Assembly: GCA_964608675.1 (NCBI GenBank)
Contig: CAZSOZ010000008.1
Span: 1-29,023, forward strand
Reading direction: 5' to 3'
Source: an uncultured archaeon
Lineage (GTDB): Archaea > Iainarchaeota > Iainarchaeia > Iainarchaeales > 1-14-0-10-31-34
Length of the DNA: 29,023 nt
This document shows positions 1 to 25,060 of the stretch, piece by piece. The notes beneath the pieces are model-generated. The model did no database searches and was not told the origin of the DNA. It saw only the letters and a program-made list of their open reading frames with translations. The position numbers and the translations under genes were made by a program. Within the stretch, counting starts at the first letter, position 1, and every line of letters starts with the position of its first letter.

Positions 1-2844
1 ACAAAAGAAGAAAAAGAACAAGAAAAAAAAAAAGAAAAAAAAACAAAAAAAAAAACAGAAAAACCAGAAGAAAAAAAAGAAACAAAAAAAGAAAACCAAG
101 AAAAAAAAGGAAAAAAATCTAATTCTGATTCAAAGAAAAAAAAAGAAAAGAAAAAAAAAGGAAAAACAAAAAAAGAATCTGATTACAAAAAAAAAGATTT
201 AACTGAAAAAGAAAAAAAGCTTTTAAAGCAGGCAGAAAACGATGAATTAGAAGAAGAACTTCCTAAAAAACCTGAAATAAAAAAGAAAATACTTGAAAAC
301 GCAATTAAAATGAGTGAAGACGAATTCGATGAATTTGATGCAGAAGAAATTGACGGAATAGAATATTATTCAGGCGACAAAAAATTTACTTTAAAAGACG
401 AAAAAGCAAAAGAAACAAAAGAAACTGCTATTGGAACAGAATTAAGTTTCCTTGAAAACCAAGAAACCGGAAACGCTTTTATTGGAAGAAAAAAAAGTAT
501 TTTTGAAAAATACCAGGAAAAAGCAGGATTGTTTGTAGGAAGAGTAGATGAAGAAGAAATACAAGAAAAAAACATTTTGCTTGATTCTTTGAATCCTCAT
601 GTAGTTTTTGTATGTGGTGCAAGAGGTTCAGGAAAAAGTTATGTTTTAGGAGTTTTGGCAGAAGAACTTGCATTAAAGAATCAGGATGTAGGATTAATTG
701 TAATTGATCCAATCGGAGTGTTCTGGTCAATGAGGTATCCAAACAAAGAAGTAAACGAAGTAACAAAATTAAGCGAATGGGATTTAATGCCTCAGGGACT
801 TGACAACATTAAAGTGTTTATTCCTGAAGGAATTAAATCAGAAGTTCCAAAAACAACTTATGATGCAACTTTTTCAATTCAGCCTTCTTTACTGACATCA
901 GAAGACTGGTGCCTGACTTTTGGAATGGAAAGATTTGGTCCAGGAGGACTCCTATTAAGCAAAGTATTAAAAAAATTAGAACATGGATTTAAGGCAGAAG
1001 GAAAATACATTAAAGCAAAAAAAGAAAATTATTCTTTAAACGACATTATTTTCTGCCTTGAAAAAGACGAAGAATTAAATTCAAGAGAAAGAGGATACAA
1101 ACAAGATTCAATAAGAGCTTTAGTTTCAAGATTTGAAGCAGCAAAAAGCTGGGGTATTTTTTCAGAAAAAGGAACTCCATTAGGAGAATTAAGCAGAGAA
1201 AACCAGCTAACTATTCTGGATACAAGTTTTTTAGAAGACGATGTCACAGCGTTAGTTATAGGAATAATTGCAAGAAGAATTCTTTCAGCAAGAAAAATTT
1301 CAACAAGAAAAGAAGCAGCAAAAAAATTCAAAAAAAATTTAGATGAAATGCTTGAATTAGATATTCCTCCGACATGGCTTTTTATAGATGAAGCCCATAC
1401 TTTGATTCCTTCAGGGAACGTTAAAACTCCTGCAACTTCTGCTTTAGTTGAATATGTAAAACAAGGAAGACGGCCGGGCTGTTCATTGGTGTTTGCAACC
1501 CAACAGCCTTCAGCAATTGACACAAAAGTTTTAAGCCAGCTGGATATAATGATTTCCCACAAGCTTGTTTTTGACGACGACATTAAAGCAATATTCAAAA
1601 GAGTTCCATCTATTGTACCAAGAAAATACAGAAAAAGCAGTTTTATTAGAACTCTTTCAGTGGGAACAGCTTTAGTTGCAGACCGAAGAGAAGAAACTTC
1701 AAGGGCTTTTGTAATGAATATTAGGCCAAGAATGTCACAGCATGAAGGAAGAGATGCAGAAACATCAGAATCCAAAACAGATGTATCAGAAAAAGATGTT
1801 TTGGAAATTGCAGTTGAAATGATTTGGAGAAAAATACAGGACGCGCCACTTGAAATGGAAAAAGTAAATGCATTAGTTGATACATTAAATGGAAAATACA
1901 AAAGCAAAGTAATGCTTTCATCTGTACTGGATGCATTAGAAGAAAAAAGTGCCGTGATTTCTGTAGACAAAGTTTTCATTAAAGGAAAAGAAAAAATAGA
2001 AGAAGAGGAAGAAGAATCAACAGAAACAGAAGAAGAAAAATATGAAAGAGAAATAGAAGAAGGACTAAAAAAACAAAAGGAAATAAAAGAAAAAGGTTTA
2101 ATTGGAGAAGAAAAGCCAATAAAAGAATTAAGTCTAGCAGTAAAAATAGATGAAGAAAATGCAAGAAAAATTGCAGACAAAAACAGAAAAAAAAAGGCAT
2201 TAGGTTTGTTTGGAAGCGAAGAAAGAATAAAAGGAATAATACTGAATTTTGAGCCAATCTACAAAATAAGTTTAAACGATTTTGATTTAAAGAAAGAATT
2301 TGTTTCAGTTGAATGCTATGTAAACGGTTTAACCGGAGAATTAATGCATTTTAATGGAAAACAATTCATTGAATCAAAAGGATTCAGCAAAGCTGATTCA
2401 TTAAACAGAGATGAATCCTTTATTTTAAGAAATTTACTGCAAAAAAAAATGTTAAAAGAAATCATTGAAAAAAATCCGGATTTAAGTGAAGAAAAAGCAA
2501 AAAAAATTGTTTCTTCTCTGGCAGAAAAAGGTTTTTTAAAAAAAGAAAAAAAAGAAGGAAGAATACAATATTCATTAAATAAAGAAATTGATTTACCTTT
2601 TAGTCCAAGAATAAAATTAATTAGTTCATTAAATGACTGTTCTTTTACAGAAAGCCTTGCAAACAACAATGTAAAAACAAAGTTTGGAGAAGAAGAAATA
2701 AATTCAAAAATAAAAGGTTTATGGCCTAATTCAGTTATAAAAAAAACAGAAAAAATACACAGACCTGTTTACTACATAATATTTGAGGAGAATGGAAAAG
2801 AAAGGCTTCTTAAATTAGATGCAGCAACAGGACAAAAAATTTAA
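1..2844 (+). CDS. HerA/FtsK-superfamily (DUF87-like) P-loop ATPase with a K/E-rich N-terminal region and a C-terminal wHTH-like region; probably 5'-truncated by the window
   Basis: Walker A GARGSGKS, VIDPIG, Walker B LFIDEAH, KQGRRPG, ATQQP. The frame of the ATG at 310 is open back to base 1 (TKEEKEQEKK...), so the real start may lie upstream of the window. Confidence 0.85.
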   Translation, partial: TKEEKEQEKKKEKKTKKKTEKPEEKKETKKENQEKKGKKSNSDSKKKKEKKKKGKTKKESDYKKKDLTEKEKKLLKQAENDELEEELPKKPEIKKKILENAIKMSEDEFDEFDAEEIDGIEYYSGDKKFTLKDEKAKETKETAIGTELSFLENQETGNAFIGRKKSIFEKYQEKAGLFVGRVDEEEIQEKNILLDSLNPHVVFVCGARGSGKSYVLGVLAEELALKNQDVGLIVIDPIGVFWSMRYPNKEVNEVTKLSEWDLMPQGLDNIKVFIPEGIKSEVPKTTYDATFSIQPSLLTSEDWCLTFGMERFGPGGLLLSKVLKKLEHGFKAEGKYIKAKKENYSLNDIIFCLEKDEELNSRERGYKQDSIRALVSRFEAAKSWGIFSEKGTPLGELSRENQLTILDTSFLEDDVTALVIGIIARRILSARKISTRKEAAKKFKKNLDEMLELDIPPTWLFIDEAHTLIPSGNVKTPATSALVEYVKQGRRPGCSLVFATQQPSAIDTKVLSQLDIMISHKLVFDDDIKAIFKRVPSIVPRKYRKSSFIRTLSVGTALVADRREETSRAFVMNIRPRMSQHEGRDAETSESKTDVSEKDVLEIAVEMIWRKIQDAPLEMEKVNALVDTLNGKYKSKVMLSSVLDALEEKSAVISVDKVFIKGKEKIEEEEEESTETEEEKYEREIEEGLKKQKEIKEKGLIGEEKPIKELSLAVKIDEENARKIADKNRKKKALGLFGSEERIKGIILNFEPIYKISLNDFDLKKEFVSVECYVNGLTGELMHFNGKQFIESKGFSKADSLNRDESFILRNLLQKKMLKEIIEKNPDLSEEKAKKIVSSLAEKGFLKKEKKEGRIQYSLNKEIDLPFSPRIKLISSLNDCSFTESLANNNVKTKFGEEEINSKIKGLWPNSVIKKTEKIHRPVYYIIFEENGKERLLKLDAATGQKI

Positions 2845-4523
2845 TTTTTTTCATTCAATTGACTGATTATTGTTTCAGCAATTTTTTTTGGATCATGCCT
2901 TAATAAATCAACTTTTTCCCATAAAACCCGTTTTTTTTCAGAAGAAATTGATTCAATTAAATCAGCTCTGATTATTTTTGTTTTATTTAATTTTTTTTCA
3001 TTTAAATTATCTTCTACAAGAAAAGCTCTTTCTTTTTCATATAATTCAAGAACTCTTTTTTCAGGAACAGAATTATTCAACAAAACAAAATCTATGAAAT
3101 CCAAGGAAATGATTTTGTTTAATTCATTCAAATAATCTGATGCCTTAAAATCAGGAGTTTGACCTGGCTGAGTAACAATATTTAAAACAAAAAATTTTTT
3201 TGCTTTTGATTTTTTTACTGCAGAATTAAGTTCTTTAACTAAAAGGTTGGGCAGAATGCTTGTATAAAAGCTTCCTGGAGCCAGAACAACTGCATCAGCT
3301 TCAAGAATTGATTTAACTGCTTCAGAGAAAGCTTTTGGTTCAGGAAACAAAAAAATTTTTTTTATTTTTCCTTTAGTGTTTCTTACATTAAATTCTCCTT
3401 CAACCTTTTTTCCGTCTTCAAATTCTGCACACAAGTTAACGTCATCCAAAGTTGAAGGAACAACTTTTCCTTTAATTGCGAGAATTTTAGAGGTTTCCTT
3501 TAAGCCTAACTCAAAGCTTCCTTTTAATTTAGTTAAAGCAGCAATAAATAAATTTCCAAAAGAATGCCCGTTTAATTCATGGTTGCCGTGAAAACGGTAT
3601 TGAAATAAATCTTTGAGCAGTTTTTCTGAATCACTTAAAGCAACAAGACAGTTTCTTATGTCTCCTGGAGGAAGAATATTCAAATCCTTTCTTATTTTTC
3701 CTGAACTTCTCCCTGAATCAGTTACAGTTACAATTGCAGTAAGATTTTTAGTGTATTTTTTTAATCCATTCAAAAGAATCGGCAGACCTGTTCCACCTCC
3801 TATTGCAACAATTTTAAGAGAAGACCCATTGGATTTTTTTTCTAGTGCATTAATTGCTTTATTTAACTCTGAAATAGAATTAATTGAATAATCTGCTTCC
3901 TCTAAAATGTTTTTAGCTTTAACTTTTGAAAACCTTCCGTGCAGTATTCGAATTGAATTCATTCCAAGAGAATTTGCAATTCTTATTTCTGAATGAATTC
4001 TGTCTCCAACAGAAACAATTTCTTCAGGCTTTAATTTAAAGCGCTTTAAGGTTTCCCTAAAAAATTCTTCTTTGTCAGGGCCTTTTTCTATATCGTGAAT
4101 AAAAATTTCATCAAACAAAGAAATTAAACCAAGCAATTCAATTTTTTTCTGCTGTCTTTTTGTGATTCCTGAAGTAATTAAAATTAATTTAATTCCTTTT
4201 GTTTTCAGGTTTTCAAGAAGGTCTCTTGTTTTAGGAAACAAATGAATTTCTTCAACTAAATCAGAGTTATATGCTTCAAGAGCTTTATTTACAATTAAAT
4301 CCTTTTTTTTTCCACCCGCATATTTTTCTGCAATTAAATCAAAAACGTTTGCAGTGGGATTCAGTTCATTTAATTTTTTTTGTTCTTCAATTAATTTTTC
4401 TTCACCTACATTAATTCCGGCTGAAACCATTGCTTTTACTGCACGCCTTCTTGCATTAAAAACAAGAAGATTAGTGCAATCAAACAAAGTGTCATCCAAA
4501 TCAAAAATTACTGCTTTAATCAT
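2841..4523 (-). CDS. Fusion of a HAD-superfamily hydrolase (N-terminal) and a YvcK/GlmR (UPF0052/CofD-like) domain (C-terminal)
   Basis: HAD motifs FDLDDTL, ITSG and VGDRIHSE. YvcK motifs IGGGTGL, VTVTDSGRSSG, PPGDIRNCL, FQYRF, GHSFGNL, PGSFYTSILPNLL, TQPGQT and RHDP. Confidence 0.9.
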   Translation of the reverse strand: MIKAVIFDLDDTLFDCTNLLVFNARRRAVKAMVSAGINVGEEKLIEEQKKLNELNPTANVFDLIAEKYAGGKKKDLIVNKALEAYNSDLVEEIHLFPKTRDLLENLKTKGIKLILITSGITKRQQKKIELLGLISLFDEIFIHDIEKGPDKEEFFRETLKRFKLKPEEIVSVGDRIHSEIRIANSLGMNSIRILHGRFSKVKAKNILEEADYSINSISELNKAINALEKKSNGSSLKIVAIGGGTGLPILLNGLKKYTKNLTAIVTVTDSGRSSGKIRKDLNILPPGDIRNCLVALSDSEKLLKDLFQYRFHGNHELNGHSFGNLFIAALTKLKGSFELGLKETSKILAIKGKVVPSTLDDVNLCAEFEDGKKVEGEFNVRNTKGKIKKIFLFPEPKAFSEAVKSILEADAVVLAPGSFYTSILPNLLVKELNSAVKKSKAKKFFVLNIVTQPGQTPDFKASDYLNELNKIISLDFIDFVLLNNSVPEKRVLELYEKERAFLVEDNLNEKKLNKTKIIRADLIESISSEKKRVLWEKVDLLRHDPKKIAETIISQLNEKN

Positions 4524-4534
4524 AAAAAAATCCC

Positions 4535-5011
4535 TTAATCAAAAAATTTTGCCATAACCAGTTCATTTTTTCCTTTATAATAATGGTCTTTTAATACTGT
4601 CTCTTTATGCATTCCTATTTTGGAATAAAAAGCAATTGCTCTCTGATTATCTTCATGAGTAAAAAGAAATAATTTTCTGAGCCTGCTGTTATTCAAAGAA
4701 AAAAATTTTTTTGCATGAACTTCAACTGAATCAAACAATTTTTTTGCAATTCCTTTTCCGCGAAATTCCGGCAAAATAGCAATTCTGTCTAATTCAATTA
4801 AACCATGCCTTGGAAGCCCTTTCATAGCCCAAGAAACAATCCCAATAACTTTTCCGTTAAATTCAGCTGAAATAAAATTCCATTCTTTTTTTGTTTCGTT
4901 TTCAAAAACTTTAAGGCCTTCTTCAATTGACTGAATGCTGTAGCCTTCCCTTAAAATTAATGCTATTTCCTGTGCATCTTTTTGTTCTGATTTCCTTAAA
5001 ATTAAATTCAT
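4535..5011 (-). CDS. GNAT-family N-acetyltransferase (RimI-like features)
   Basis: Acetyl-CoA motif ILPEFRGKGIAKKL, plus NQRAIAFYSKIG and HYY. ATG at 5011 preferred; an in-frame TTG at 5020 is the alternative. Confidence 0.85.
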   Translation of the reverse strand: MNLILRKSEQKDAQEIALILREGYSIQSIEEGLKVFENETKKEWNFISAEFNGKVIGIVSWAMKGLPRHGLIELDRIAILPEFRGKGIAKKLFDSVEVHAKKFFSLNNSRLRKLFLFTHEDNQRAIAFYSKIGMHKETVLKDHYYKGKNELVMAKFFD

Positions 5012-5023
5012 TAAAATCAATTC

Positions 5024-6796
5024 TCACTTAACTGTAACGCTTTTAGCAAGGTTCCTGGGTTTATCGGGATTTCTTTCAAGAAAAACTGCTGTATGAAAAG
5101 CAAGAAGCTGTAAAGGAATAATTGAAACCAAAGGAAACAAAAGTTCATTTACTTTAGGCAAAGGAACAAAAAAATCAAATACTTCATGATTTTCATTACT
5201 TACTCCAATAATGAAAGCTCCTCTGGATTTTGCTTCAATTGCATTGTTAATTGTATCCCTAAAAACTGAATCCCTTGGAGCAACCACAATAACAGGGGTT
5301 CCATCAGAAATTAATGCAAGAGGGCCGTGCTTTAAGCTTCCAGCCTGAAATGCTTCAGCATGAATATAAGAAATTTCCTTTAATTTTAATGCAGCTTCAA
5401 GAGCAGAAGAAAAATTAGTGTTTCGTCCAATAAAATAAACGTCCTTAGAAGACTTAATTTTTTTTGAAAGAGATTTAATTAAAGAAGAATTCAAGTTAAT
5501 GGCTTCCTGCATTTTAGAAGAAATTTCATTTAATTCCCTTAAAGCAGGAAAAAAATTTTCTTTACAGGAATTTGCAAGCAAATACAATAAAGCAAGCTGG
5601 GAAGTAAAAGCTTTAGTTGAAGCAACTCCTATTTCTTCTCCGCACTTCAAATAAATTACTTTATCGCTTGCTCTCGCAAGAGAAGAATTAAATACGTTAA
5701 CCATTGAAACAATCTTGAAGCCCTTTTTTTTGGTTTTCTTAACTGAATCCAATACATCTGCAGTTTCACCGCTTTGAGACAAAGCAAAAATCAAAGCGTT
5801 TTCAGGCAAAAAATCAATTTGATAAGGAAACTCTGAAGCTTCAATTACCTGAGGATAAATTCCAGCAATACGAGAAAAAAATTCTTTAGCAAACAAAGCA
5901 GCATTAAAAGAAGTGCCGTTTGCAATAAAAAAAACTTCAGAATATTTAATTAAAGAAGCAACATCAGAAAACAGTTTTTTGTCCTGCTCTAAAACAGACT
6001 TCATAACAGAAGGCTGTTCCATTATTTCCTTTAACATGAAATGAGAATACTTTAATTTGCCGGAAGAAGTAATATCAGAATTTACTTCAACAATTTTTCT
6101 TTTAACAGGCTTCAAAGAAAAATCAAAGCACTTGAATTCATTTTTTGCTTTATTCCTTGAAATCAAAGCAATATCGTTGTCCTCCAAAAACACAAACTTG
6201 TTTGTAAAAGAACTCAAAGGAATCTGATCAGAAGCAGCAAAAATTCCTTTTTCTGAAACCCCCAAAAGCAAAGGAGATTCATGCTTAACTGCAATAAGTT
6301 TGTCTGGCTCTCTTGAAGAAAAAACAAGCAAAGCAAAACTTCCCTGCAAAACAGAAACCGATTTGCTGACAGAAGTCAAAAGATTATTTCCTGAATTCAT
6401 TTCTTCTTCAATCAAACACAAAACAATCTCTGAATCTGTTTCAGAATTAAATTTTTTTTCTGAAAACTTTTTCTTTAAATCAGAAAAATTTTCAATTATG
6501 CCGTTATGCACAATAGTTATTTCATTAGAAGAAGAAACATGAGGATGCGCATTTTTTTCAGAAATTTTTCCGTGAGTTGCCCAGCGGGTATGCCCTATAA
6601 TTAAATGAGATTCAATGTCCTGAATTTTGCTTGGAATACTTGAAATAGAACCAACTGATTTAAAGGCTTCAACTTTTCCTTCAAAAAAAAACGCTGTCCC
6701 CCAGGAATCATAACCGCGGTATTCAAGTTTTTTTAATGCACCAATAAAATAATTTCCTTTAATGGGCTCTCCGATAAAGCCGATTATTCCGCACAT
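5024..6796 (-). CDS. glmS: Glutamine--fructose-6-phosphate aminotransferase (isomerizing)
   Basis: N-terminal MCGIIG (the catalytic Cys fixes the start at 6796), LEYRGYDS, GHTRWATHG, HNGIIEN, SQSGETAD, VASTKAF, LKEISYIHAE, KHGPLAL and C-terminal PRNLAKSVTV. Confidence 0.97.
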   Translation of the reverse strand: MCGIIGFIGEPIKGNYFIGALKKLEYRGYDSWGTAFFFEGKVEAFKSVGSISSIPSKIQDIESHLIIGHTRWATHGKISEKNAHPHVSSSNEITIVHNGIIENFSDLKKKFSEKKFNSETDSEIVLCLIEEEMNSGNNLLTSVSKSVSVLQGSFALLVFSSREPDKLIAVKHESPLLLGVSEKGIFAASDQIPLSSFTNKFVFLEDNDIALISRNKAKNEFKCFDFSLKPVKRKIVEVNSDITSSGKLKYSHFMLKEIMEQPSVMKSVLEQDKKLFSDVASLIKYSEVFFIANGTSFNAALFAKEFFSRIAGIYPQVIEASEFPYQIDFLPENALIFALSQSGETADVLDSVKKTKKKGFKIVSMVNVFNSSLARASDKVIYLKCGEEIGVASTKAFTSQLALLYLLANSCKENFFPALRELNEISSKMQEAINLNSSLIKSLSKKIKSSKDVYFIGRNTNFSSALEAALKLKEISYIHAEAFQAGSLKHGPLALISDGTPVIVVAPRDSVFRDTINNAIEAKSRGAFIIGVSNENHEVFDFFVPLPKVNELLFPLVSIIPLQLLAFHTAVFLERNPDKPRNLAKSVTVK

Positions 6797-6925
6797 TAAA
6801 CAATACTGCATCTCAAACTTTAAAAAGCATCTACTAAAAAAAAAATAAAACAAAAAAAGAAATATTTAAAAAGAAAAACCAACCAGTATAAATAAAAACT
6901 TAATAGTGCTAAAAATATTTTTATA

Positions 6926-7846
6926 ATGGTGATTTTTTTGGATGAAAAAATTTTTGAAAACCCTGTGAAATTAAAGCCCCTGCTTTCAAAAACAGGCTGG
7001 AAAATCTTTAAACTGCTTAACGAAAGAGCTTATTATCCTGCAGAAATAGCAAAAAAACTTGGACTGCATGAACAAAAAGTTTACTATTATATTAATCAAA
7101 TGAAAAAAAATGATTTAATTGAAATTGACAGAACAGAAGAAAAATTTGGAGCACTGGCAAAATATTTTAAAGCAAAATTTAATTCTGTTTCTTTGATTGC
7201 AGGAGAAGAAAAAGGAACAGAATTTCAGGCAGAAGGAAAACAAAAAAAAATAAACAAAAAACTTGAAGAATTCTTTTTTCCTTTTATTGAAAAAGGAAAA
7301 TTTAATGCAAAAATTGTAGTCGGAAGCCCTGACCCCCACGGAAGCTTTAAGGCAAGAGCAAGGGATTCTTTTCTTGGAATAGAATTAAGCGCTTTTTTGG
7401 GTGCGCTTTCAGATGAAATAAGATATCCAATGGTTTTTCTTGACACAGAATTAAAAAACCTGAAAGAAGAAAACTTTAATTTTATTGTAATAGGAGGAGT
7501 TTTAACAAACACTTTAACTAAAACCATTAACTCAAAGCTTAACGCTCAATTTATTCCTTTCGGAGGAAGATGGATAATTAAATCAAAAGCATCAAAAAAA
7601 GAATTCAACGAAGACGCAACAGGCTTTGTGGAAATAATCAGGCATCCTTTTTTTGCAAAAAAAAAGATTATGGTTATTGCAGGGAACAGGAATGCAGGAA
7701 CAAAAGCCGCAATTCTTGCATTAATAAGGAATTCCAAAGAAATAATTAAAGGAAATTCATTCAACGAAAAAATTCATTCAAAGATTGTTGAAGGCATTGA
7801 TTTGGACGGAGACGGAAAAATAGACAACATTGAAATAAAAGAATAA
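6926..7846 (+). CDS. Putative transcriptional regulator: ArsR-like winged HTH plus a C-terminal alpha/beta domain
   Basis: HTH YPAEIAKKLGLHEQKVYYYINQM. C-terminal FIVIGGVLTN and VIAGNRNAGTKAA resemble the S-layer C-terminal domain pattern. Ends in DLDGDGKID. Divergent from glmS. Confidence 0.75.
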   Translation: MVIFLDEKIFENPVKLKPLLSKTGWKIFKLLNERAYYPAEIAKKLGLHEQKVYYYINQMKKNDLIEIDRTEEKFGALAKYFKAKFNSVSLIAGEEKGTEFQAEGKQKKINKKLEEFFFPFIEKGKFNAKIVVGSPDPHGSFKARARDSFLGIELSAFLGALSDEIRYPMVFLDTELKNLKEENFNFIVIGGVLTNTLTKTINSKLNAQFIPFGGRWIIKSKASKKEFNEDATGFVEIIRHPFFAKKKIMVIAGNRNAGTKAAILALIRNSKEIIKGNSFNEKIHSKIVEGIDLDGDGKIDNIEIKE

Positions 7847-8224: not shown

Positions 8225-8500
8225 ATGGAGTTAAATGAATTCACTGTTAAAAGCTGTATGAGCAAAACTGCATGCGAGTTTATTCCAAAAAAGAAAACTG
8301 AACTGGATTTAAGCAAAATCGCAGAAAAATTAAGGCAAAAAGAAGTTTTAGTGGATATTGAAACCCCTTATGTTTTGATTTTAAAATTTAAAGGAAAAAA
8401 CATTTCTTTATTCAAAAGCGGAAAAATTATTGTAAAAGAAACCCCTGAAGAAAAAGAAGCCCAAAAAATAGCAGAAGAATTAATGAAAAAAACAAAATAA
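8225..8500 (+). CDS. Hypothetical small protein (possible TBP-like/helix-grip fold)
   Basis: 91-aa ORF 9 nt after the previous stop. Pattern LDLSKIAEKL...TPYVLIL...ISLFKSGKIIVK. Confidence 0.65.
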   Translation: MELNEFTVKSCMSKTACEFIPKKKTELDLSKIAEKLRQKEVLVDIETPYVLILKFKGKNISLFKSGKIIVKETPEEKEAQKIAEELMKKTK

Positions 8501-10573: not shown

Positions 10574-12022
10574 ATGCAACAAAAAAAAACAATTAAATTT
10601 CTGGTTTTAATTCTTTTAATCGGAGTGCTTTTGAGGTTTGCTCCTGTAATGCTTTTTGAAACCCAAATGAGTTATGATGCTCCATACCATCAAAGAATAG
10701 CAGAAAAAGTGTTTGAAACAAAAAAAATTCCTTTAATGGACGATACTTTAGGAGGAAGAGCAAACATTTATCCGCCTTTATACAGTGTATTTCAAAACAT
10801 AATGCATTATACAACAGGATTTGACTTCTTTTTTCTGGGAATGATACTTCTTCCAATTATTTCAAGTTTAATTATATTAACAGTTTTTGTTTTTGTAAGA
10901 AAGTATTCAGGAGAAAAAAAAGCTTTGCTTGCAGGATTCCTTGCAGCAGTAAGTTCTTCTTTGATTGCATACGCTTACGACAGCCCTGAAAATTTTGTTT
11001 TCTTTTTTCTGCCTGCAATAATTTTTTTGTTTAATGAAAAAAAAGAAAAACTTGGAACAGTAATTTATGCAAGCGGACTATTATGGAATTATTTGATTGT
11101 AATTGCTTCATTTATTCCCTTAATTGTTTTTTTAAGAAAAAAAATTAAAGCAGTTTCTTATACTGTTTTAGGCTTGATTGCAGTCATAATTTATTATTTT
11201 GTTTTTCAGGGAGAAAGCGTTTTCTATAATCAGGATATTAATCTTGCAATGGATTTTGTTTCATTAAGTTTTAAGCCTGCTTTTTTTGCTTCAGTTTTTC
11301 TTTCATACATTTTAATTATTCCCTTAATTTATTTTATTTGGAAAAAAGGCATTCCAAAAAAAGTAAATTACTGGAAATATTTTGTTTTTTTTAGTTTGAT
11401 TGCATTAACAACAGTTTTTTTGACTCCTTTTTTAAGAGTGTGGGAACAAATAAAATTTTTGTCTTTGAGTTCAATAATAGTTTTAGGAAGCATTAAATTG
11501 TTTGACAAAAAAGTAAAAATTTATGCAGGAATTTATGCAATAGTATTGTTTTCTTCTGCATTAATTATGAGTATGCAGGGATTTTATCCAAGCACAATGA
11601 AAGAAGACTTTCATTCCATGAAATTTTTAGAAGAATTCACTGAAGAAGGCTCAATTTTAGCTGAACCAAGTTTTTCAGAACACATGAGAAATTCAACTGA
11701 ATTAAATAACAGAATTTTGACTTCGCTTTATTTTGAAAACGCAGGAAAAAACTCTTTTTTAAAAGAAAGCCTTCATTACCTGACTTTCCAAAAAACAGAA
11801 AACGAAAAAAAATTTTTTAAAGAAAGCCGACTAAAGTTCATTGTATTTAATTTTGAAGACACTGCAACAAGAGAAACAAAACAAATAGAAGAAAAACAAA
11901 TATTTAACAAAATTTATTCAATAAAATATTACAAAGAATGTTTTATTCCAGTAAAAGAATTAGGGTTTGCATGCGGATGGAATGAAACAAAAATTTTAAT
12001 GCATAACGAATTTGAGAAATAA
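10574..12022 (+). CDS. GT-C fold (STT3/PMT/ArnT-like) membrane glycosyltransferase, putative
   Basis: First TM ending LLRF, then YDAPYH and IYPPLY loop motifs, about 10 or more TM segments and a soluble C-terminal domain. Confidence 0.65.
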   Translation: MQQKKTIKFLVLILLIGVLLRFAPVMLFETQMSYDAPYHQRIAEKVFETKKIPLMDDTLGGRANIYPPLYSVFQNIMHYTTGFDFFFLGMILLPIISSLIILTVFVFVRKYSGEKKALLAGFLAAVSSSLIAYAYDSPENFVFFFLPAIIFLFNEKKEKLGTVIYASGLLWNYLIVIASFIPLIVFLRKKIKAVSYTVLGLIAVIIYYFVFQGESVFYNQDINLAMDFVSLSFKPAFFASVFLSYILIIPLIYFIWKKGIPKKVNYWKYFVFFSLIALTTVFLTPFLRVWEQIKFLSLSSIIVLGSIKLFDKKVKIYAGIYAIVLFSSALIMSMQGFYPSTMKEDFHSMKFLEEFTEEGSILAEPSFSEHMRNSTELNNRILTSLYFENAGKNSFLKESLHYLTFQKTENEKKFFKESRLKFIVFNFEDTATRETKQIEEKQIFNKIYSIKYYKECFIPVKELGFACGWNETKILMHNEFEK

Positions 12023-12742: not shown

Positions 12743-13555
12743 TTAACCCATATTTTTTTTGAGTTTTTCTATTTGTTTTGAGGGAGCAGAAACAAAAAAA
12801 GTGCCGGAAAAAATTTTTATTTGAACAGAAGAAAAATAAATTCTGATTCCCGGCTGTTTTAATTTAAGAGAAAAAAAAAGAAAGTCATCAAAAAATTCTG
12901 CTTTAAGAGAAAAATTTGGTTTCTTTGATTTAATTAAAAATTTTTCTGCAATTTTGTCAAAAACTTGTTCAGGGCATTCAATAAAAAATTCAGTTAAATC
13001 AAATGAATCAAAAAAAGAAGAAAGTTTTTTAACTGAATTCTTTTCTTTAAAAAAAGAAACTGAATCATTAAAATTTAATTTTTTTAAGGAATCAACCTGC
13101 TTTGAAAGAATTTTTGAAAGATAAGTTAAATGCTTTATTTTTTCGTTTGCAAGAAAGTTAAGTTTGTTTAAATCAGAAACCAGAAAAGTTGCAGACGTTC
13201 TTGCATCACGCAGTAAATCAGAATCATTTTTTGAGCGTTCAATTACTGTTTGCAGTTGTTCTACGACTGAATCCAATTCATTTATTTTAGGAGAAGAAAG
13301 AGAATTATTTAATTTCATTAACAGCTTGTTTTTCATTTCAAAAGAAATAGTTGAATTCCCTTTATCTGTAATAAAATAAGTGTTGTTCTTTTTTTTGAGA
13401 AACCCCAAAGAAACAGCATTCTTTAAGGTTCTGGACAAAGAAGCTTGGGCAGAATTAGTTGAACCAAAATCAGAAGAAATTTTTCCCAGCAAAGAATTAT
13501 AGCTTATGCCCGGCGACTGCTTAACCATTAACAAAATAGCATTTCTTGCAGTCAT
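12743..13555 (-). CDS. Hypothetical protein with an N-terminal winged HTH
   Basis: ILLMVKQSPGISYNSLL...SLSRTLKNAVSLGFLKKKNNTYFITDKG wHTH pattern. ATG at 13555 preferred. Confidence 0.7.
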   Translation of the reverse strand: MTARNAILLMVKQSPGISYNSLLGKISSDFGSTNSAQASLSRTLKNAVSLGFLKKKNNTYFITDKGNSTISFEMKNKLLMKLNNSLSSPKINELDSVVEQLQTVIERSKNDSDLLRDARTSATFLVSDLNKLNFLANEKIKHLTYLSKILSKQVDSLKKLNFNDSVSFFKEKNSVKKLSSFFDSFDLTEFFIECPEQVFDKIAEKFLIKSKKPNFSLKAEFFDDFLFFSLKLKQPGIRIYFSSVQIKIFSGTFFVSAPSKQIEKLKKNMG

Positions 13556-13655
13556 GTTAATTAAAAGGTTTTTGAAAAATAAAAAGGTTTTGGAAAAAAA
13601 AGACAAAAAAAAACTTAACAAAAGAAATAAAAACAGTGGATTCCTTTATATTAAA

Positions 13656-14435
13656 ATGATTAAAAGCCTGACTGACTCAGTTTTGCTTCTGATAAAGAAA
13701 CCTGCAATCCTAACTGCTGGAATTTTTTTTATTTTAATTGATTTTATATTCAGGTATTTTACTGAAGAACAGGCATTTGAAGCATTATTCAAGTTTTTGA
13801 ATATTTCCACTTACCCTATATTTGAACTGCAAAGAATGCCTTTCCAGTTAATTTCAAGTTTTTCCGGAGAACTGCTTTTTTTAGGATTGTTTTTAACTGC
13901 AAGCTCTGTGATTTCAGCCATGTTTTCTGTTTCAACAGCAAATTATATTTTTGAAAAAAAATCAATTATTGATTCAATTGTTTTTTCATTCAAAAATTTA
14001 ATGACAATAATTTTGTTTGTTTTGTTTTTCGGATTAATTGTTGTTTTTTCAGGAATAATTTTGTGGATTGTTTTTTTGTTTGCTTTGGCTTCAGGATTAA
14101 TCGGAGCAATAATTCTTGTATTAATTACAGTATTAATGGGATTCATTTTTTTGCATTTTGTTTTTGTTCCTGCATTGCTGGGAAAAGGAATGAAAATAAA
14201 AAAAGCATTTCAGGAAAGCTGGAATATTACAGAAAAAAATTTTATTTCAGTTCTGCTTTTACTGGTTGCATTAGGGCTGGCCGGAATTGTCTTTGAACAA
14301 ATTTATTTAATAATACTTACTTCAATTTTAGGAAAAAATTCTTCAGTGATTTTAATTGAAATGCTCTTAAGCCTGATTTTAGCGGCTTATGCTAATATAT
14401 TGTTTCCCTTATTCTATTTGAATAAAACCAAGTGA
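13656..14435 (+). CDS. Hypothetical multi-pass membrane protein
   Basis: About 6 TM segments and an AFQESWNIT motif. The ATG at 13656 avoids overlap with the divergent gene. Stop lies 4 nt before smc. Confidence 0.75.
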   Translation: MIKSLTDSVLLLIKKPAILTAGIFFILIDFIFRYFTEEQAFEALFKFLNISTYPIFELQRMPFQLISSFSGELLFLGLFLTASSVISAMFSVSTANYIFEKKSIIDSIVFSFKNLMTIILFVLFFGLIVVFSGIILWIVFLFALASGLIGAIILVLITVLMGFIFLHFVFVPALLGKGMKIKKAFQESWNITEKNFISVLLLLVALGLAGIVFEQIYLIILTSILGKNSSVILIEMLLSLILAAYANILFPLFYLNKTK

Positions 14436-20311: not shown

Positions 20312-23300
20312 ATGAAAAAATTACTTTGCATTATTTTTTTTGCATTATTTTTTTTGAATGGTTTTGCACAAGTAACAGAACCAAATTATACAACTTATTC
20401 AAATGGATGCAGTGATATTTCTCATTCAAACTGCATTGAAATTTCTGAATGCAATCCAGAAGAAACAGGAAAACCCTGCCTTGTATTAGATCAAGCAAAT
20501 ACATACTATCTTTTAACTGAAGATTTGACAACAGAAAAAACAGGAATAATCATAAAAAAAGATAATACAACACTTGACTTAGGCGGGCATACTTTAACTT
20601 TTGGGAACTCAGATGTTTCAGGAATACCTAATTCAGGATTTGAAACAGGCACTTCTTCAGGATGGGATTTAAGCAATGCGCCTAATGCAAGCATTGTTTC
20701 AACAAACGAGTTTCCAATGCTGGACAATTATGCTTTAAAAATTACTGCTCCTTCTTCAGGAAACGAAATAGTTTCCGGAACAACACAAATTAGTGTTTTA
20801 AACAGAGAGTATTCTGCTTATGCAGTAATAGACAGCAGTAATGAAAGCAATATCAGAATGTTAGTTGAAGGGCCAAACGGAGGAACTGTTTGTGACCAAA
20901 CCGGCATGTCAAGCGGAGCCTATCATAGAGGAGACGTAATGACCTGTGATTTTACTCCAACTACAGCAGGAAACTACAAAATTCATATAATTGGAGTGAA
21001 TTTGCTTAAAGACGACGGAAGAACAGACACATACATAGACAACGTGAATATAGGCCCAAAAGGAGACGTTGGAATTTTTTCCGGATGGAGTGACAGTTCA
21101 TGTGAATTAGCAGAAGAATACATTCAGTTCTCAAACAATGGCAGGCCAAACAACGTAAAAATAACAAACGGAAGAATTGTTCAAGGAAGTCCATATGGAA
21201 TAAACAATAAAGGAATTTATTTGTATTCTAATTCATCTGGTTCATATGAAATATCAAATATTTATTCAGAGAGTTCAGGGACATCAAGTGTTAATATTCT
21301 TGCAAGCCAATCATCAAACAATGACGTGCACAACAATGCATTTCAGGTTAATTCAATAAGGCTTATTTCAAGAGAAAGCTTAAGGAATCCTCTTTCATTT
21401 GTTAATGGAGAAAACATTCATTTTTATAACAATGAAATAGAGGGAGGAGAAGGAGGAATAATACTCAACAGAATAAGCGGGGGAACCATTCATGATAATG
21501 AAGTAAGAGTTAATACAACAGTAACAAACCATTATTCAATTCAGGTTTTTGCTGCAAACAATATAGACATATACAACAATTTTGTTCAGCCAATTCAAGG
21601 AGACGGAATTTATTTTGGCACATCCTTTAATACAATAGAAGTATACAATATCAACATATTTAATAATACTGTTATTTTGTCAAGTCATCCCTGCAACACA
21701 GAATATGTAAGAGAATTCAGCACTCCAATGCTAAGGGCAACAGATTACTTAAAAGGAACAGCTCACGACAACAAAGTTTACGGAAACGTGTTTGATGGAA
21801 CAGCAATAGATTATTCTTATAGAAACTGTTTTTCACGCATAAGAGGTTTTTTTATTAATTTAAGCGGGCCAAATAACGAATTTTATGACAACACAATAAT
21901 TACAAAAAAGCAGGAAAACTCTCAGGCAACCGCAATAGTTGCAGGAGGAACAGCAACAATAAAAAACAATTATATTGAAAGCGACCAATACTTCACATTA
22001 ATTGGAGGCGGGTATTCACCTTCTTATAATTACGTTTTTCAGGACAACAGGTTTATAAAAACAGAAAACCCTGACTATGAAGGAATAATAATAGGAGGAT
22101 TTAATGGAAGCGCAGGAGGAATTCAAGGAGCATTAAATAATTACTTTATTAATAATTCATTTGAAAACGGAGCAAGCCTTGAAGACATAAGTTATTCTGT
22201 AAACGAAGACAAAGATTTATGGATTCAATGGTATTTGAATATTAAAGCAAGAGATGCAGAAACACATAATCCAATTCAAAATGCACAAATAGAAATAAGA
22301 AAACACAATTCAACAGGAAAAATAATTTTTACAGGAACAACTGATTCAGAAGGAAAAATTGAAACACAAACTTTAACAGAATACTATGAATATGCTTTCG
22401 GCACAGAAGTTCCAGAAAGAGAACTATACAGCCCGTATTATATTACAGGAGAATACAACGAACAAGAAATAAACCAGTTAATTTCCTTAAATCAAAGCAA
22501 AACAGTTTACTTTGATTTTACTTTAAGTTCCTGTTCAGAAGGAGAAACACAAAATTGTACGACTCCAGAAAATTGTCCAGGAACACAAACATGCACAAAC
22601 GGAACATGGGAACTATGCAAAGATATTGCAGGAGACAATTGTCCGGCAGACATTAATCCAAGCATTATTGTAACTCAAATTAATCCTGTTTCAGATATTT
22701 CAGTTGAACAAGGCAAAGCATTTCCTTTTTCAACTTCAGTTACCTGTCTGGATAACGACTGTGGAAATATAGAAGCAGTATTGGATCCAGAAATAAATTC
22801 AACAGTAAACCAGGGAACAGACGATATATGGGTTTACGGAACAAGCATAAACACTTCAACAGATTTTGGAGAAATAGGGCACACAGGAACCCAGCCAGAA
22901 GCAATGGCTTTCAGATTCAACAATATTCAGATTCCAAGAGAAAGCACAATAAATTCAGCTGTAATAACTTTAACTTCAAGAAGTGCAATGGATTCACAAA
23001 CAGTAAATGTAATACTCAAAAGCCAAGTGGATGACAATCCAGCTACTTTTTCAACTTACTCAGATTATAGTTCAAGAACAAAATCAAATTCATCAATTGA
23101 ATGGAACAATGTGCCTGCATTTATTTATGCAGGAACATATAATACTCCTGACTTAAGTTCAATAATACAGGAAACAATAAACAAAAGTTATTGGCAGGAA
23201 GGAGATTCAATAGTAATATTTATTGAAGATAATGGCAGTTCAGCAGGAGCAGAAAGAAGAATTGTAACTTATGATAGTCCCTGGTTTGAAGACGGACAAG

Positions 23301-25060
23301 CAAAACTAACAATAAATTATGAAACAGGAAAATACAAAGGACAGATTTCAACTACAACAGGAGTACAGCCATTTTATACTACTTCATTAAATCCTCAAAT
23401 TTGTTCAAATATGACTGCAGGGGAAACTTGTACTAATACTTGGCAGGTAATTCCAACAGGAGAAATAAATGAAACTTATACTTTTTTTGTTGATTACATT
23501 CCAGAAAACAATGAAATTGATTTACAGCAAACAACAAAATTAAATATTACAATAAGTGAATCAGGAGAATGCATGGAAAACTGGGATTGCACAGACTGGA
23601 GTGAATGCATAAACGGAACACAAACAAGAACATGCATTGATTTAAGTGACTGCGGAACAACAAACAACAAACCAATAGAAACACAAACATGTCTTGAATG
23701 CAATTTTGGAGAAAGAAGGGATTGCACGACAACAGAAAGTTGTCCTGGATTACAGGTTTGCGTACAGGGATACTGGAGTGACTGTGAAGATGTTCCAGAC
23801 GACAACTGCCCTGTATTAAGTTGTTCGGAGGGAGAAATAACTGAAAGCTGTTATTGTGGTGATAATGTATATGATTCAGGATACTGTTGTAGAAACGAAC
23901 ACAGAGAAACAACATGTCCAACAGACTGCCCTCAAGGACAAATAACAGAAGAATGCTATTGTGGAACAGAAACATACACAACAGGATACTGCTGTACAGA
24001 ACAACACCAATCAAATGAATGCCAAGAAGAATGCATTGAAGACTGGAGTTGTCCTGACTGGACTACAATAGAATGCATAAACGCAACACAAACAAGAACA
24101 TGCATTGATTTAAATGACTGCGGAACAACAGAATTCAAGCCAGCAGAAACACAATCATGCGGAAACTGCACAACAGGACAAACAACAACCTGCTACACAA
24201 ACCAAGGATGCCAAGGCACACAAACCTGCATAAATTCATTCTGGCAAGAATGCATTGACATTCCAAATGACGGTTGCCCCTCAGAAAACAGTCAACCACT
24301 AAAAGAATTCACAATAAACATACAACCCGCAACAACAAAAGAAGGAGAAACATTCACAATAACAATAACTCATTCACAAACACCAATAATAAACGCAAAA
24401 ATAGAATACGCAAAAAAAACATACTACACAAAATCAAACGGAACAATAAAAACCCAAACAAAAAAAGACTACACACAAATAAAAATATCCAAAACAGGAT
24501 ACAAAACAAAAACCATAAACCTAATACTAAGAACAGATAAATGCGGAAACCAAATATGCGAAAAACCATACGAAACACAAACCAGTTGCCCAGCAGACTG
24601 CAAACAACCAGAAAAAATAAAAGAACTAAAAATTTACGTATTCAAAACAGAAAACACACTAATAATAAAAATCACTGACACAAACGAAAAAGAAATAGAA
24701 AACGCAAAAGTAAGCTACGGAACAAAAACCAAATACACAAACACACAAGGACTAGTCAACTTTATTGAATTAATTCAACCAGAAACAATAAAAGCAGAAA
24801 AACCAGGATACAAAACAACACAAAAAACACACAACCCAAAAACAACCTGCATAGAAAACACAACAAAAAACTGCACAACAAAAGAATGCCCAGGAACACA
24901 AACATGCACAAACGGAACATGGACAAACTGTATTGACACCCCAAACGACAACTGCCCAAAAGAAACCGAAAAAGAAACAAGTTTAACAACTATAACTCTT
25001 TCTATATTGCTGGTAATAGGAATAATTATTATGATAATAACTAAATTAAATAGTAGATAA
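20312..25060 (+). CDS. Large cell-surface protein: signal peptide, parallel beta-helix repeats, beta-sandwich domains, Cys-rich repeats and a C-terminal TM anchor
   Basis: N-terminal hydrophobic signal, TLDLGGHTL, many xIxNNx repeats, NSGFETG...YIDNV (CBM-like), repeated CPGTQTC..G.W..C.D.P.DNCP units and a terminal ITLSILLVIGIIIMII segment. Confidence 0.85.
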   Translation: MKKLLCIIFFALFFLNGFAQVTEPNYTTYSNGCSDISHSNCIEISECNPEETGKPCLVLDQANTYYLLTEDLTTEKTGIIIKKDNTTLDLGGHTLTFGNSDVSGIPNSGFETGTSSGWDLSNAPNASIVSTNEFPMLDNYALKITAPSSGNEIVSGTTQISVLNREYSAYAVIDSSNESNIRMLVEGPNGGTVCDQTGMSSGAYHRGDVMTCDFTPTTAGNYKIHIIGVNLLKDDGRTDTYIDNVNIGPKGDVGIFSGWSDSSCELAEEYIQFSNNGRPNNVKITNGRIVQGSPYGINNKGIYLYSNSSGSYEISNIYSESSGTSSVNILASQSSNNDVHNNAFQVNSIRLISRESLRNPLSFVNGENIHFYNNEIEGGEGGIILNRISGGTIHDNEVRVNTTVTNHYSIQVFAANNIDIYNNFVQPIQGDGIYFGTSFNTIEVYNINIFNNTVILSSHPCNTEYVREFSTPMLRATDYLKGTAHDNKVYGNVFDGTAIDYSYRNCFSRIRGFFINLSGPNNEFYDNTIITKKQENSQATAIVAGGTATIKNNYIESDQYFTLIGGGYSPSYNYVFQDNRFIKTENPDYEGIIIGGFNGSAGGIQGALNNYFINNSFENGASLEDISYSVNEDKDLWIQWYLNIKARDAETHNPIQNAQIEIRKHNSTGKIIFTGTTDSEGKIETQTLTEYYEYAFGTEVPERELYSPYYITGEYNEQEINQLISLNQSKTVYFDFTLSSCSEGETQNCTTPENCPGTQTCTNGTWELCKDIAGDNCPADINPSIIVTQINPVSDISVEQGKAFPFSTSVTCLDNDCGNIEAVLDPEINSTVNQGTDDIWVYGTSINTSTDFGEIGHTGTQPEAMAFRFNNIQIPRESTINSAVITLTSRSAMDSQTVNVILKSQVDDNPATFSTYSDYSSRTKSNSSIEWNNVPAFIYAGTYNTPDLSSIIQETINKSYWQEGDSIVIFIEDNGSSAGAERRIVTYDSPWFEDGQAKLTINYETGKYKGQISTTTGVQPFYTTSLNPQICSNMTAGETCTNTWQVIPTGEINETYTFFVDYIPENNEIDLQQTTKLNITISESGECMENWDCTDWSECINGTQTRTCIDLSDCGTTNNKPIETQTCLECNFGERRDCTTTESCPGLQVCVQGYWSDCEDVPDDNCPVLSCSEGEITESCYCGDNVYDSGYCCRNEHRETTCPTDCPQGQITEECYCGTETYTTGYCCTEQHQSNECQEECIEDWSCPDWTTIECINATQTRTCIDLNDCGTTEFKPAETQSCGNCTTGQTTTCYTNQGCQGTQTCINSFWQECIDIPNDGCPSENSQPLKEFTINIQPATTKEGETFTITITHSQTPIINAKIEYAKKTYYTKSNGTIKTQTKKDYTQIKISKTGYKTKTINLILRTDKCGNQICEKPYETQTSCPADCKQPEKIKELKIYVFKTENTLIIKITDTNEKEIENAKVSYGTKTKYTNTQGLVNFIELIQPETIKAEKPGYKTTQKTHNPKTTCIENTTKNCTTKECPGTQTCTNGTWTNCIDTPNDNCPKETEKETSLTTITLSILLVIGIIIMIITKLNSR
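23603..24130 (+). repeat. Intragenic 60-bp direct repeat (23603-23662 and 24071-24130)
   Basis: 58/60 identical by manual alignment; encodes ECIN(G/A)TQTRTCIDL(S/N)DCGTT. Confidence 0.85.

Follow-up and report, generated by a model that had tools for sequence, protein, structure and literature searches.

UDP-GlcNAc (uridine diphosphate N-acetylglucosamine) supplies protein glycosylation and the polymers of the cell surface, and alternative routes to it are a current research topic. Among the archaea, the GlmS/GlmM/GlmU pathway of Methanococcus and ST0452 of Sulfolobus are familiar. The subject of this work is a candidate operon formed by glmS, a gene for a GNAT acetyltransferase and a gene for a fusion of a HAD domain with a YvcK/GlmR-type domain (HAD::YvcK). 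It lies in bases 1-29023 of contig C8 of an archaeal genome, G000 (1.2 Mb, 53 contigs, 94% complete, ~30% G+C), and this whole stretch of 29,023 bases is referred to as the window.

The closest described counterpart of the YvcK domain is GlmR of the Firmicutes. According to the accessible text of PMC10128056, purified Listeria GlmR formed UDP-GlcNAc from N-acetylglucosamine 1-phosphate (GlcNAc-1-P) and uridine triphosphate (UTP), was reported there to have no acetyltransferase activity, and became ~100-fold less active as the D40A/D41A/N198A mutant. The available portion of PMC13046274 states that the activity of Bacillus subtilis GlmR needs the consecutive aspartates D38 and D39, that R301 is required for UDP-GlcNAc binding, that K296 is acetylated, and that GlmR is conserved 'in some archaea', with little known outside Gram-positive bacteria. 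In Apicomplexa, GNA1 activity comes from a separate GNAT lineage (PMC5838249, accessible part), and the accessible part of the report on Staphylococcus aureus NagU (bioRxiv 10.64898/2026.06.23.733835) describes bacteria with only the uridyltransferase half of GlmU, for which 'an unidentified acetyltransferase' is expected. A literature search by title and start of abstract, mostly without subscription journals, returned nothing on the operon described here, on archaeal GNA1 or on HAD-YvcK fusions.

The glmS-GNAT-HAD::YvcK genes and their host genome

The minus strand of the window carries three head-to-tail open reading frames (ORFs), with lengths of 609 amino acids (aa) for 5024-6853, 161 aa for 4535-5020 and 560 aa for 2841-4523. 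The GNAT of the window is called type 1, and the GNA1-homologous kind that occupies the same operon slot in other genomes type 2. The features are:

5024..6796, minus strand: glmS, glutamine--fructose-6-phosphate transaminase (start ATG 6796, 590 aa; the frame stays open up to 6853)
4535..5020, minus strand: type-1 GNAT acetyltransferase (PF00583), proposed amino-sugar-phosphate N-acetyltransferase
3828..4523, minus strand: HAD-IA phosphatase-type domain (PF13419, PF00702), fusion residues 1-232
2841..3827, minus strand: YvcK/GlmR-type (CofD-like) domain (TIGR01826, PF01933), fusion residues 233-560 plus the stop codon
6797..6925, no strand assigned: AT-rich intergenic region between glmS and a divergent S-layer-like gene (6926-7846), presumed operon promoter

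The likely start of glmS is the ATG at 6796, the end coordinate assigned in a preliminary description of this DNA. It gives a protein beginning Met-Cys-Gly-Ile-Ile-Gly, with the Cys nucleophile right after the Met, and the TGA stop occupies 5024-5026. The protein matched TIGR01135 with 642.8 bits (cut-off 418) over residues 2-589 of 590 and NF001484 end to end with 651.9 bits, and it is composed of a class-II GATase domain (GATase_6/4/7) and two SIS stretches. The full-length match over the cut-off, the Cys after the initiator Met and the two SIS domains are those of the GlmS family. For the GNAT gene a TTG start at 5020 (161 aa) is possible and the ATG at 5011 is likelier (158 aa, identical to the public gene call P0121); its stop lies at 4535-4537. 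Counted from this ATG, the gap to glmS is 12 nucleotides (nt), and 11 nt separate the GNAT stop from the fusion ATG at 4523, so the co-oriented arrangement with gaps of about 12 nt or less that had been described before was confirmed. A TATA-like run was read in the sequence ~90 nt upstream of the glmS ATG, and the region 6797..6925 is presumed to hold the operon promoter; relatives have this divergent S-layer-like gene beside glmS as well.

The preliminary description had proposed a non-canonical UDP-GlcNAc module without GlmM and GlmU. In the 94% complete G000 genome neither a GlmM-equivalog match nor a GlmU-type LbH acetyltransferase was found; sister lineages carry glmS-glmM-LbH instead. 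The single PGM/PMM-family mutase of G000 (C1:245117-246484, 455 aa) scored below all cut-offs, with 483 of the 600 bits set for PgmG, 400 of 439 for archaeal GlmM and 209.6 of 447 for bacterial GlmM (TIGR01455). The archaeal GlmU model (TIGR03992) gave four N-terminal-part matches only in this genome, those to the short nucleotidyltransferases of contig C3, none over the cut-off and none covering LbH, and the sole Hexapep ORF has 169 aa. No match to UDPGP/NagU-type uridyltransferases (PF01704) was obtained in G000, a weak blank given that none was obtained in 14 control genomes either.

Distribution of YvcK, GlmM and glmS among related genomes

The comparison was carried out in an order-level set of 61 genomes, G000 included, and in a phylum-level set of 215 genomes, the latter with thresholds of E<=1e-30 for YvcK, E<=1e-60 for GlmS and E<=1e-100 for GlmM. 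The LbH and GlmU counts in the order refer to the matches listed, with 63 weaker ones lying beyond them. A YvcK domain was detected in 18 genomes of the order, fused to HAD in 14 and alone in 4. GlmM over the cut-off occurs in 24 of the 61 and LbH likewise in 24 (as a separate ~200-aa gene in 21, as full-length GlmU in 3). The two sets share 23 genomes, the exceptions being G021 (GlmM 384 bits) and G041 (75% complete, no LbH found). None of the genomes in these sets is among the 18 with YvcK, and no LbH part was present among the matches listed for those 18. The same exclusion was observed across the phylum, where YvcK was found in 48 genomes, GlmS in 107 and GlmM in 57, with no overlap between YvcK and GlmM. 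Within family f20, YvcK is present in 21 of 23 genomes, and in G100, one of the two that lack it, glmM comes directly after glmS, which is a YvcK/GlmM switch inside one family.

The arrangement glmS-glmM-LbH in a row was identified by family scan in G023 and from ORF sizes and coordinates in most of the loci L066-L087. A beta-PGM-like HAD lies between glmS and glmM in G057, G055, G018 and G010 (family scan), and an unnamed 248-aa ORF takes this place in G033. GlmU is commonly split in the phylum (G023, G051, G052, G047 and others), with a ~200-aa LbH gene after glmS-glmM and the nucleotidyltransferase half elsewhere.

Apart from that of the window, 13 fusion loci were available in the order. 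Eight of them have glmS-GNAT-HAD::YvcK by tblastn and a ninth, G008, carries a different GNAT in the slot; the loci without the trio are those of G059 (on a 5.5 kb contig), G048, G044 and G013. Throughout the phylum, glmS and YvcK are both present in 22 genomes and adjacent in 19. The remaining three are G013, with the genes 9 kb apart, G172, with the genes on different contigs, and G116, where a contig end allowed no call. Three gene orders were observed: glmS-GNAT-HAD::YvcK (families f1, f9 and f20), HAD::YvcK-glmS-GNAT (G101, locus L210) and, in another order of the same class (G212, locus L211), glmS-HAD (232 aa)-GlmU-like-YvcK (343 aa). The GlmU-like protein of G212 combines nucleotidyltransferase and LbH parts in 428 aa and scored 276 bits on TIGR03992 against a cut-off of 292. 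A cluster that survives gene reshuffling is good evidence that its products work together. Linkage of these genes had been named beforehand as something that related genomes should conserve, and it is conserved. The three genes of the window very probably form one operon and belong to the UDP-GlcNAc pathway, and the host probably makes UDP-GlcNAc by an unusual route, judging from gene content and order; comparative genomics supports the idea of a non-canonical module well.

The HAD and YvcK domains are also joined outside this order. HAD is combined with CofD-family domains in 99 of the best 120 YvcK-domain relatives listed, and the named ones come from DPANN archaea and from anammox-group Planctomycetota (Brocadiia, Jettenia), the latter ~54% identical to the archaeal proteins. 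HAD is fused or adjacent in 5 of 80 wider YvcK loci. HAD::YvcK was observed in the anammox-type Planctomycetota Brocadiia, Jettenia and Loosdrechtia (proteins P0081, P0088, P0091, P0100 and P0104; loci L100, L102 and L103); in L102 and L103 it follows scpB and endonuclease V genes, away from glmS. This occurrence suggests a transfer of HAD::YvcK between archaea and Planctomycetota.

Two GlmS subtypes, ~40% identical to each other, can be told apart across the phylum by their TIGR01135 scores. The subtype at ~600-690 bits occurs in family f1 and most glmM lineages, the one at ~730-855 bits in f2, f9, f20, G025, G018 and G050, and both occur ahead of GNAT-HAD::YvcK. In addition, 18 of the 22 f2 genomes have glmS and neither GlmM (E<=1e-100) nor YvcK, and the glmS of G009 (L215) is flanked by genes for a Rce1-like protease and malic enzyme, with no obvious pathway partner; f2 and G009 may represent a third solution for the pathway.

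The other genes around the operon are archaeal, and include Spt5-NGN/KOW, L10P with insertion domain, L1, L11 and a TBP-like ORF; the public proteins nearest to those of the window are labelled Diapherotrites, Woesearchaeota, Aenigmarchaeota or plain 'archaeon', and the host is therefore of the DPANN type. The TBP-like ORF (8225-8500, plus strand, 91 aa) has a single TATA-binding protein repeat (PF00352, 24.5 bits); an archaeal TBP is normally about twice as long. Convergent with HAD::YvcK, with a 4-nt overlap, is the gene for a HerA/DUF87-type ATPase of 844 aa (310-2844, plus strand, frame open from base 1), whose C-terminal half is long and rich in Lys and Glu; most relatives, glmS-less genomes included, keep this tail-to-tail pair. 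A 1582-aa ORF (20312-25060, plus strand) and the ORFs at 10574-12022, 12743-13621 and 13506-14435 have no Pfam match at E<=1e-4.

The GNAT slot and the domains of the fusion

The window GNAT matched PF00583 with 59.1 bits and the rimI model TIGR01575 with 49.4 bits, under the cut-off of 86.4, and so falls outside RimI as that model defines it. A second GNAT elsewhere in G000 fits the rimI model better (64.7 bits), and no type-2 GNAT was found elsewhere in this genome. Type-1 orthologues (E<=1e-37) were detected in 9 of the 61 order genomes, in each case between glmS and HAD::YvcK. Their family is small, with 128 proteins at E<=1e-10, and all its named members are DPANN. The AlphaFold2 model of the window GNAT has a pLDDT of 95.5, and its fold is near the RimI-like chains 9mto (TM 0.81-0.89), 2cnm and 5isv. 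The invariant residues of type 1 include H72, R115, K116, H122 and H146, and these His, Arg and Lys side chains would suit a phosphate-bearing substrate.

Among the 19 genomes with adjacent glmS and YvcK, the slot is occupied by type 1 in 11 (G000-G005, G007, G016, G027, G098 and G101) and by type 2 in 7 (G008, G096, G099, G107, G108, G109 and G110). The two types are 23% identical, and both were found within families f1 and f20. The closest solved and characterised relatives are GNA1 proteins for the type-2 GNAT of G008 and six f20 genomes, not for the window GNAT. The best solved relatives of type 2 are 3fb3 (5.8e-22), 3t90 of Arabidopsis (1.9e-19) and 2vez of Aspergillus (3e-15), followed by 1i12 (4.9e-15) and 1i21 of yeast, 4ag7 of Caenorhabditis elegans and human 2huz; the JGI name 'glucosamine-phosphate N-acetyltransferase' is attached to 2 of 15 type-2 relatives. 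These matches clearly identify type 2 as homologous to eukaryotic GNA1, the N-acetyltransferase of glucosamine 6-phosphate (GlcN-6-P). The position in the operon makes the window GNAT a probable amino-sugar-phosphate acetyltransferase, and because true GNA1 homologues fill the same slot in related genomes, GlcN-6-P would be its most likely substrate. Type 1 may be a non-orthologous replacement of type 2, or vice versa, in a slot that would need such an acetyltransferase. The earlier suggestion that the GNAT acts like GNA1 is strongly though indirectly backed by its position, given the seven genomes with a GNA1 homologue in the slot, and is not backed by the family to which the window GNAT itself belongs; the accompanying caveat that this GNAT looks RimI-like was justified, since it is RimI/SpeG-like both by sequence and by fold.

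The HAD domain of the fusion matched PF13419 with 78 bits (cut-off 23.8) and PF00702 with 74 bits. It has the features of HAD subfamily IA, with the motifs D8-x-D10, T117-S118 and G173-D174 intact, and its catalytic motifs are conserved across all fusions in alignment A1 (16 rows of YvcK-domain proteins, archaeal and planctomycete). The nearest specific model was TIGR02253 (126.7 bits, under the cut-off of 169.75) and the best solved relative 2hoq (PH1655, 5.9e-22). Weaker matches were to phosphatase, pyrimidine nucleotidase and PpaX pyrophosphatase models; the nucleotidase scores were 59.6 bits for YjjG, 38.9 for PynA and 37.1 for PRK09449, all under the cut-offs. The stand-alone HADs beside YvcK in G212 and L104 are of the same TIGR02253-like kind, the order is swapped to YvcK-HAD in L104, and L100 has HAD::YvcK followed by a second HAD. 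This recurrence in several arrangements indicates that HAD plus YvcK is a module in its own right.

A role of the HAD as a phosphomutase acting between GlcNAc-6-P and GlcNAc-1-P, which had been put forward in the preliminary description, was not sustained and is ranked low. The beta-phosphoglucomutase models TIGR01990 and TIGR02009 gave 37.1 bits against 189.4 and 32.1 against 153.35, which places the domain outside that family. A PGM/PMM-family mutase is present in all 16 of the glmS+YvcK genomes tested, and YvcK, HAD and PGM/PMM stand in one row in L104, so that the HAD is not needed as a mutase. G029 has YvcK, PGM/PMM and an inositol-monophosphatase-family gene in succession. On balance, a phosphatase is likelier than a mutase; guesses at its substrate are pyrophosphate (PPi), uridine monophosphate (UMP) and an excess sugar phosphate. 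NagD of Escherichia coli is a UMP phosphatase. No soluble family-I or DHHA2-type pyrophosphatase (PPase) was found in G000; given that the genome has a membrane H+-PPase, the HAD is not required for PPi removal, and its candidacy as the pyrophosphatase of the cell is a guess. In G003 (C70, L045/L016), of the same genus, the HAD part of the fusion has an in-frame TAA, and the public gene call correspondingly covers YvcK only, with 367 aa (P0007); the TAA may stem from a recent split of the gene, mark a pseudogene or be an error of the assembly.

The YvcK domain belongs to TIGR01826 (CofD_related), with 354.4 bits (cut-off 196) over residues 238-555. It also matched PF01933 with 337.7 bits and the solved structures 2hzb, 2o2z and 2ppv at E ~2e-72. 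The published residues were mapped through the alignment with 2hzb and a constant numbering offset, and then through A1. The UDP-GlcNAc-binding Arg is present: R542, in the motif L-R-H-D, aligns with L-R-H-N of 2hzb, and it is invariant in A1 together with D269 (the first Asp), N426 and K537. K537 lies five residues before R542, the same spacing as between K296 and R301 in B. subtilis. The model of the fusion has a pLDDT of 86.9 and a pTM of 0.63, the latter leaving the relative placement of the HAD and YvcK domains uncertain, and the sole low-confidence loop of the model, 529-539, holds K537. A complex prediction of GlmS with the YvcK domain (residues 233-560) scored 0.00, gave no verdict and was used neither way. 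Among the matches listed, five of the ten trio genomes (G003, G005, G007, G016 and G027) have a nucleotidyltransferase of 205-223 bits aligned to positions 1-230 of the archaeal GlmU model, and in the other five, G000 included, the best one reaches 160-171 bits. The lack of a close GlmU-N-like nucleotidyltransferase in this half leaves room for YvcK as the uridyltransferase, and is no proof of it.

Routes to UDP-GlcNAc and comparison with known systems

The reading preferred here, to which about an even chance is given, is that the operon serves the hexosamine branch to UDP-GlcNAc, with acetylation by the GNAT, a PGM/PMM encoded elsewhere and HAD::YvcK at the end. GlmS produces GlcN-6-P, as its family membership shows. 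The GNAT would take over the N-acetylation step performed in sister lineages by the LbH part of GlmU, most likely on GlcN-6-P, and the PGM/PMM of contig C1 (455 aa) would then shift the phosphate from C6 to C1. The YvcK domain would serve as GlcNAc-1-P uridylyltransferase, as a UDP-GlcNAc-binding control element, or as both, while the fused HAD would be a phosphatase, not a mutase, that clears PPi, UMP or a sugar phosphate as a by-product or an intermediate in excess. A bolder version is rather doubtful: HAD::YvcK would be the main and not an accessory UDP-GlcNAc-forming enzyme, joining UTP and GlcNAc-1-P at an Asp-Ser site, with a HAD whose hydrolysis of the PPi set free drives the reaction forward, and a RimI/SpeG-like GNAT would independently have turned into a GlcN-6-P acetyltransferase. 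If true, it would amount to a eukaryote-ordered hexosamine pathway assembled from non-eukaryotic parts.

Several observations weigh against the hexosamine reading. In the YvcK motif T-D269-S270-G-R-S-S-G, 13 of the 16 A1 rows have Ser and 3 have Ala where GlmR has its second catalytic Asp, so the Asp-Asp plus Asn signature of uridyltransferase activity is incomplete. The Gly-Gly that follows is replaced by Gly-Arg, and the whole clade, archaeal and planctomycete, consequently has a variant site; catalysis by the YvcK domain is regarded as possible, somewhat short of even. Four short nucleotidyltransferases clustered on contig C3 of G000 (GalU, an RmlA-like protein, one of 281 aa beside a GDP-mannose-dehydratase-like gene and one of 268 aa), none with an LbH acetyltransferase part, could do uridylyl transfer. 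In G212, YvcK coexists with the GlmU-like protein in one operon, so that YvcK need not replace GlmU, and the strict exclusion applies to YvcK and the bacterial-type glmM+LbH module and does not extend to every GlmU. Among the 18 YvcK genomes of the order, seven lack glmS, which indicates a role of YvcK beyond this operon. Neither glmS nor GNAT was found in the flanks of the 80 wider YvcK loci (species genomes, mostly bacterial stand-alone YvcK), and the glmS linkage is therefore specific to this archaeal phylum, within the data searched. The neighbours of the window GNAT by phmmer, profile and Foldseek searches are SpeG/diamine-spermidine acetyltransferases, RimI-like proteins and archaeal Ard1, an N-terminal acetyltransferase, with no GNA1 among 31 phmmer matches, the 60 profile matches listed or the Foldseek rows listed. 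Moreover, the related genomes are not independent of each other and their assemblies are 60-99% complete, and a diverged LbH part in relatives could have escaped among the weaker GlmU-model matches.

Part of this evidence is shared by an unlikely alternative, a GlmS-control module in which YvcK is a non-catalytic UDP-GlcNAc sensor tuning GlmS, perhaps through the HAD, while a short nucleotidyltransferase makes UDP-GlcNAc and acetylation of the amino sugar stays with the GNAT. For B. subtilis GlmR, both UDP-GlcNAc binding and an interaction with GlmS are on record (PMC7525490 and PMC6171935, as far as accessible, and summarised in the accessible text of PMC10128056). The invariance of R542, the counterpart of the UDP-GlcNAc-binding R301, the loss of the second catalytic Asp, the GlmU-like enzyme beside YvcK in G212 and the four nucleotidyltransferases of G000 all fit such a sensor. 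It is harder to reconcile with the five trio genomes, G000 among them, that lack a GlmU-N-like nucleotidyltransferase of ~205-225 bits among the matches listed, with the presence of YvcK in glmS-less genomes and next to PGM/PMM, and with the Listeria proteins, for which no GlmR-GlmS interaction was found according to the accessible text of PMC10128056. An improbable alternative assigns to the GNAT no sugar chemistry at all, and makes it a protein acetyltransferase that regulates YvcK or GlmS. Its RimI, Ard1 and SpeG neighbours in fold and sequence agree with this, as does the acetylation of B. subtilis GlmR at K296, five residues before R301 (PMC13046274, accessible part), the equivalent spacing of the invariant K537 in its low-confidence loop being kept in the fusion. 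Against it stand the small-molecule enzyme GNA1, whose homologues sit in the same slot of seven related genomes, the better RimI-like GNAT elsewhere in G000 and the invariant residues suited to a phosphate-bearing substrate; with no LbH part found, the pathway would also have no acetyltransferase at all.

Two further alternatives concern the fusion. A self-contained four-step route, with GlmS, GNAT, the HAD as mutase and YvcK as uridyltransferase, would make the operon complete in itself without a PGM/PMM-family enzyme. Some HAD enzymes are phosphomutases, the HAD motifs are intact here, and the cluster of G212 has no mutase gene. The route is nevertheless distinctly improbable, given the PGM/PMM found in every glmS+YvcK genome tested, the HAD and PGM/PMM side by side with YvcK in L104, the HAD beside GlmM in the four sister operons, the beta-phosphoglucomutase score far under the cut-off and the best HAD families, which are phosphatases and nucleotidases. 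A CofD-like phosphotransfer is considered very improbable. CofD moves a phospho group from a nucleoside-diphospho donor and releases a nucleoside monophosphate; by analogy, YvcK would pass GlcNAc-1-P from UDP-GlcNAc to an acceptor, and the fused HAD would be a nucleotidase hydrolysing the released UMP. The membership of YvcK in the CofD family PF01933, the sub-cut-off scores of the HAD on pyrimidine nucleotidase models and the recurrence of the pair as a fusion, in swapped order and as separate genes are compatible with it. Such a transfer has no known acceptor or product, and other phosphatase families score at least as well on the HAD as the nucleotidase models do. Uridylyl transfer is also the sole published activity of this branch of the family, according to the accessible text of PMC10128056.

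If the hexosamine reading holds, metabolic reconstructions based only on GlmM and GlmU would call the pathway incomplete in genomes of this kind, where comparison of the operons shows how the missing steps are probably covered. GNA1 homologues are found inside an archaeal glmS operon, and a second, unrelated GNAT appears to hold the same job. The retention of YvcK in a glmS operon without a GlmM-equivalog or LbH-type GlmU match bears on the question of whether YvcK/GlmR is an enzyme or a regulator. The recurrent HAD partner, present also in the fusions of anammox Planctomycetota, points to an undescribed phosphatase step coupled to YvcK.

Compared with the systems described so far, the replacement of pathway steps by unrelated or distant enzymes recalls GNA1 of Apicomplexa (PMC5838249) and NagU of S. 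aureus (bioRxiv 10.64898/2026.06.23.733835). Those cases involve other organisms and other proteins, and the accessible parts of both reports mention no archaea, YvcK-HAD fusions or glmS-linked GNAT. The GlmS-GlmM-GlmU pathway shares the first enzyme and the end product, and its genes stand as glmS-glmM-LbH at the equivalent place in sister lineages; it differs in GlmM, for which neither G000 nor any other of the phylum's 48 YvcK genomes has a match at E<=1e-100. With Firmicute GlmR, a GlmS activator that binds UDP-GlcNAc and an accessory GlcNAc-1-P uridyltransferase, the YvcK domain shares the TIGR01826 family, ~45% identity to 2hzb over the aligned part (by eye), the GGGTG motif, the first Asp, the Asn (Listeria N198) and the Arg (B. 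subtilis R301). Unlike GlmR, it is fused to an N-terminal HAD, has Ser or Ala in place of the second catalytic Asp, and is encoded with glmS and a GNAT gene, not with yvcJ and whiA, neither family occurring in the 19 window ORFs scanned; its archaeal host gave no match to the GlmM equivalog or to an LbH-type GlmU. The eukaryotic GFAT-GNA1-AGM1-UAP1 pathway differs in that the window GNAT comes from another GNAT branch, the search of G000 for a UAP1/UDPGP-family protein gave the weak blank described above, and the last step would be left to YvcK or a short nucleotidyltransferase. It resembles the proposed route in the order of the steps, with GNAT acetylation at the 6-phosphate stage and a phosphohexomutase thereafter, and in the true GNA1 homologues that hold the GNAT slot in seven related genomes.

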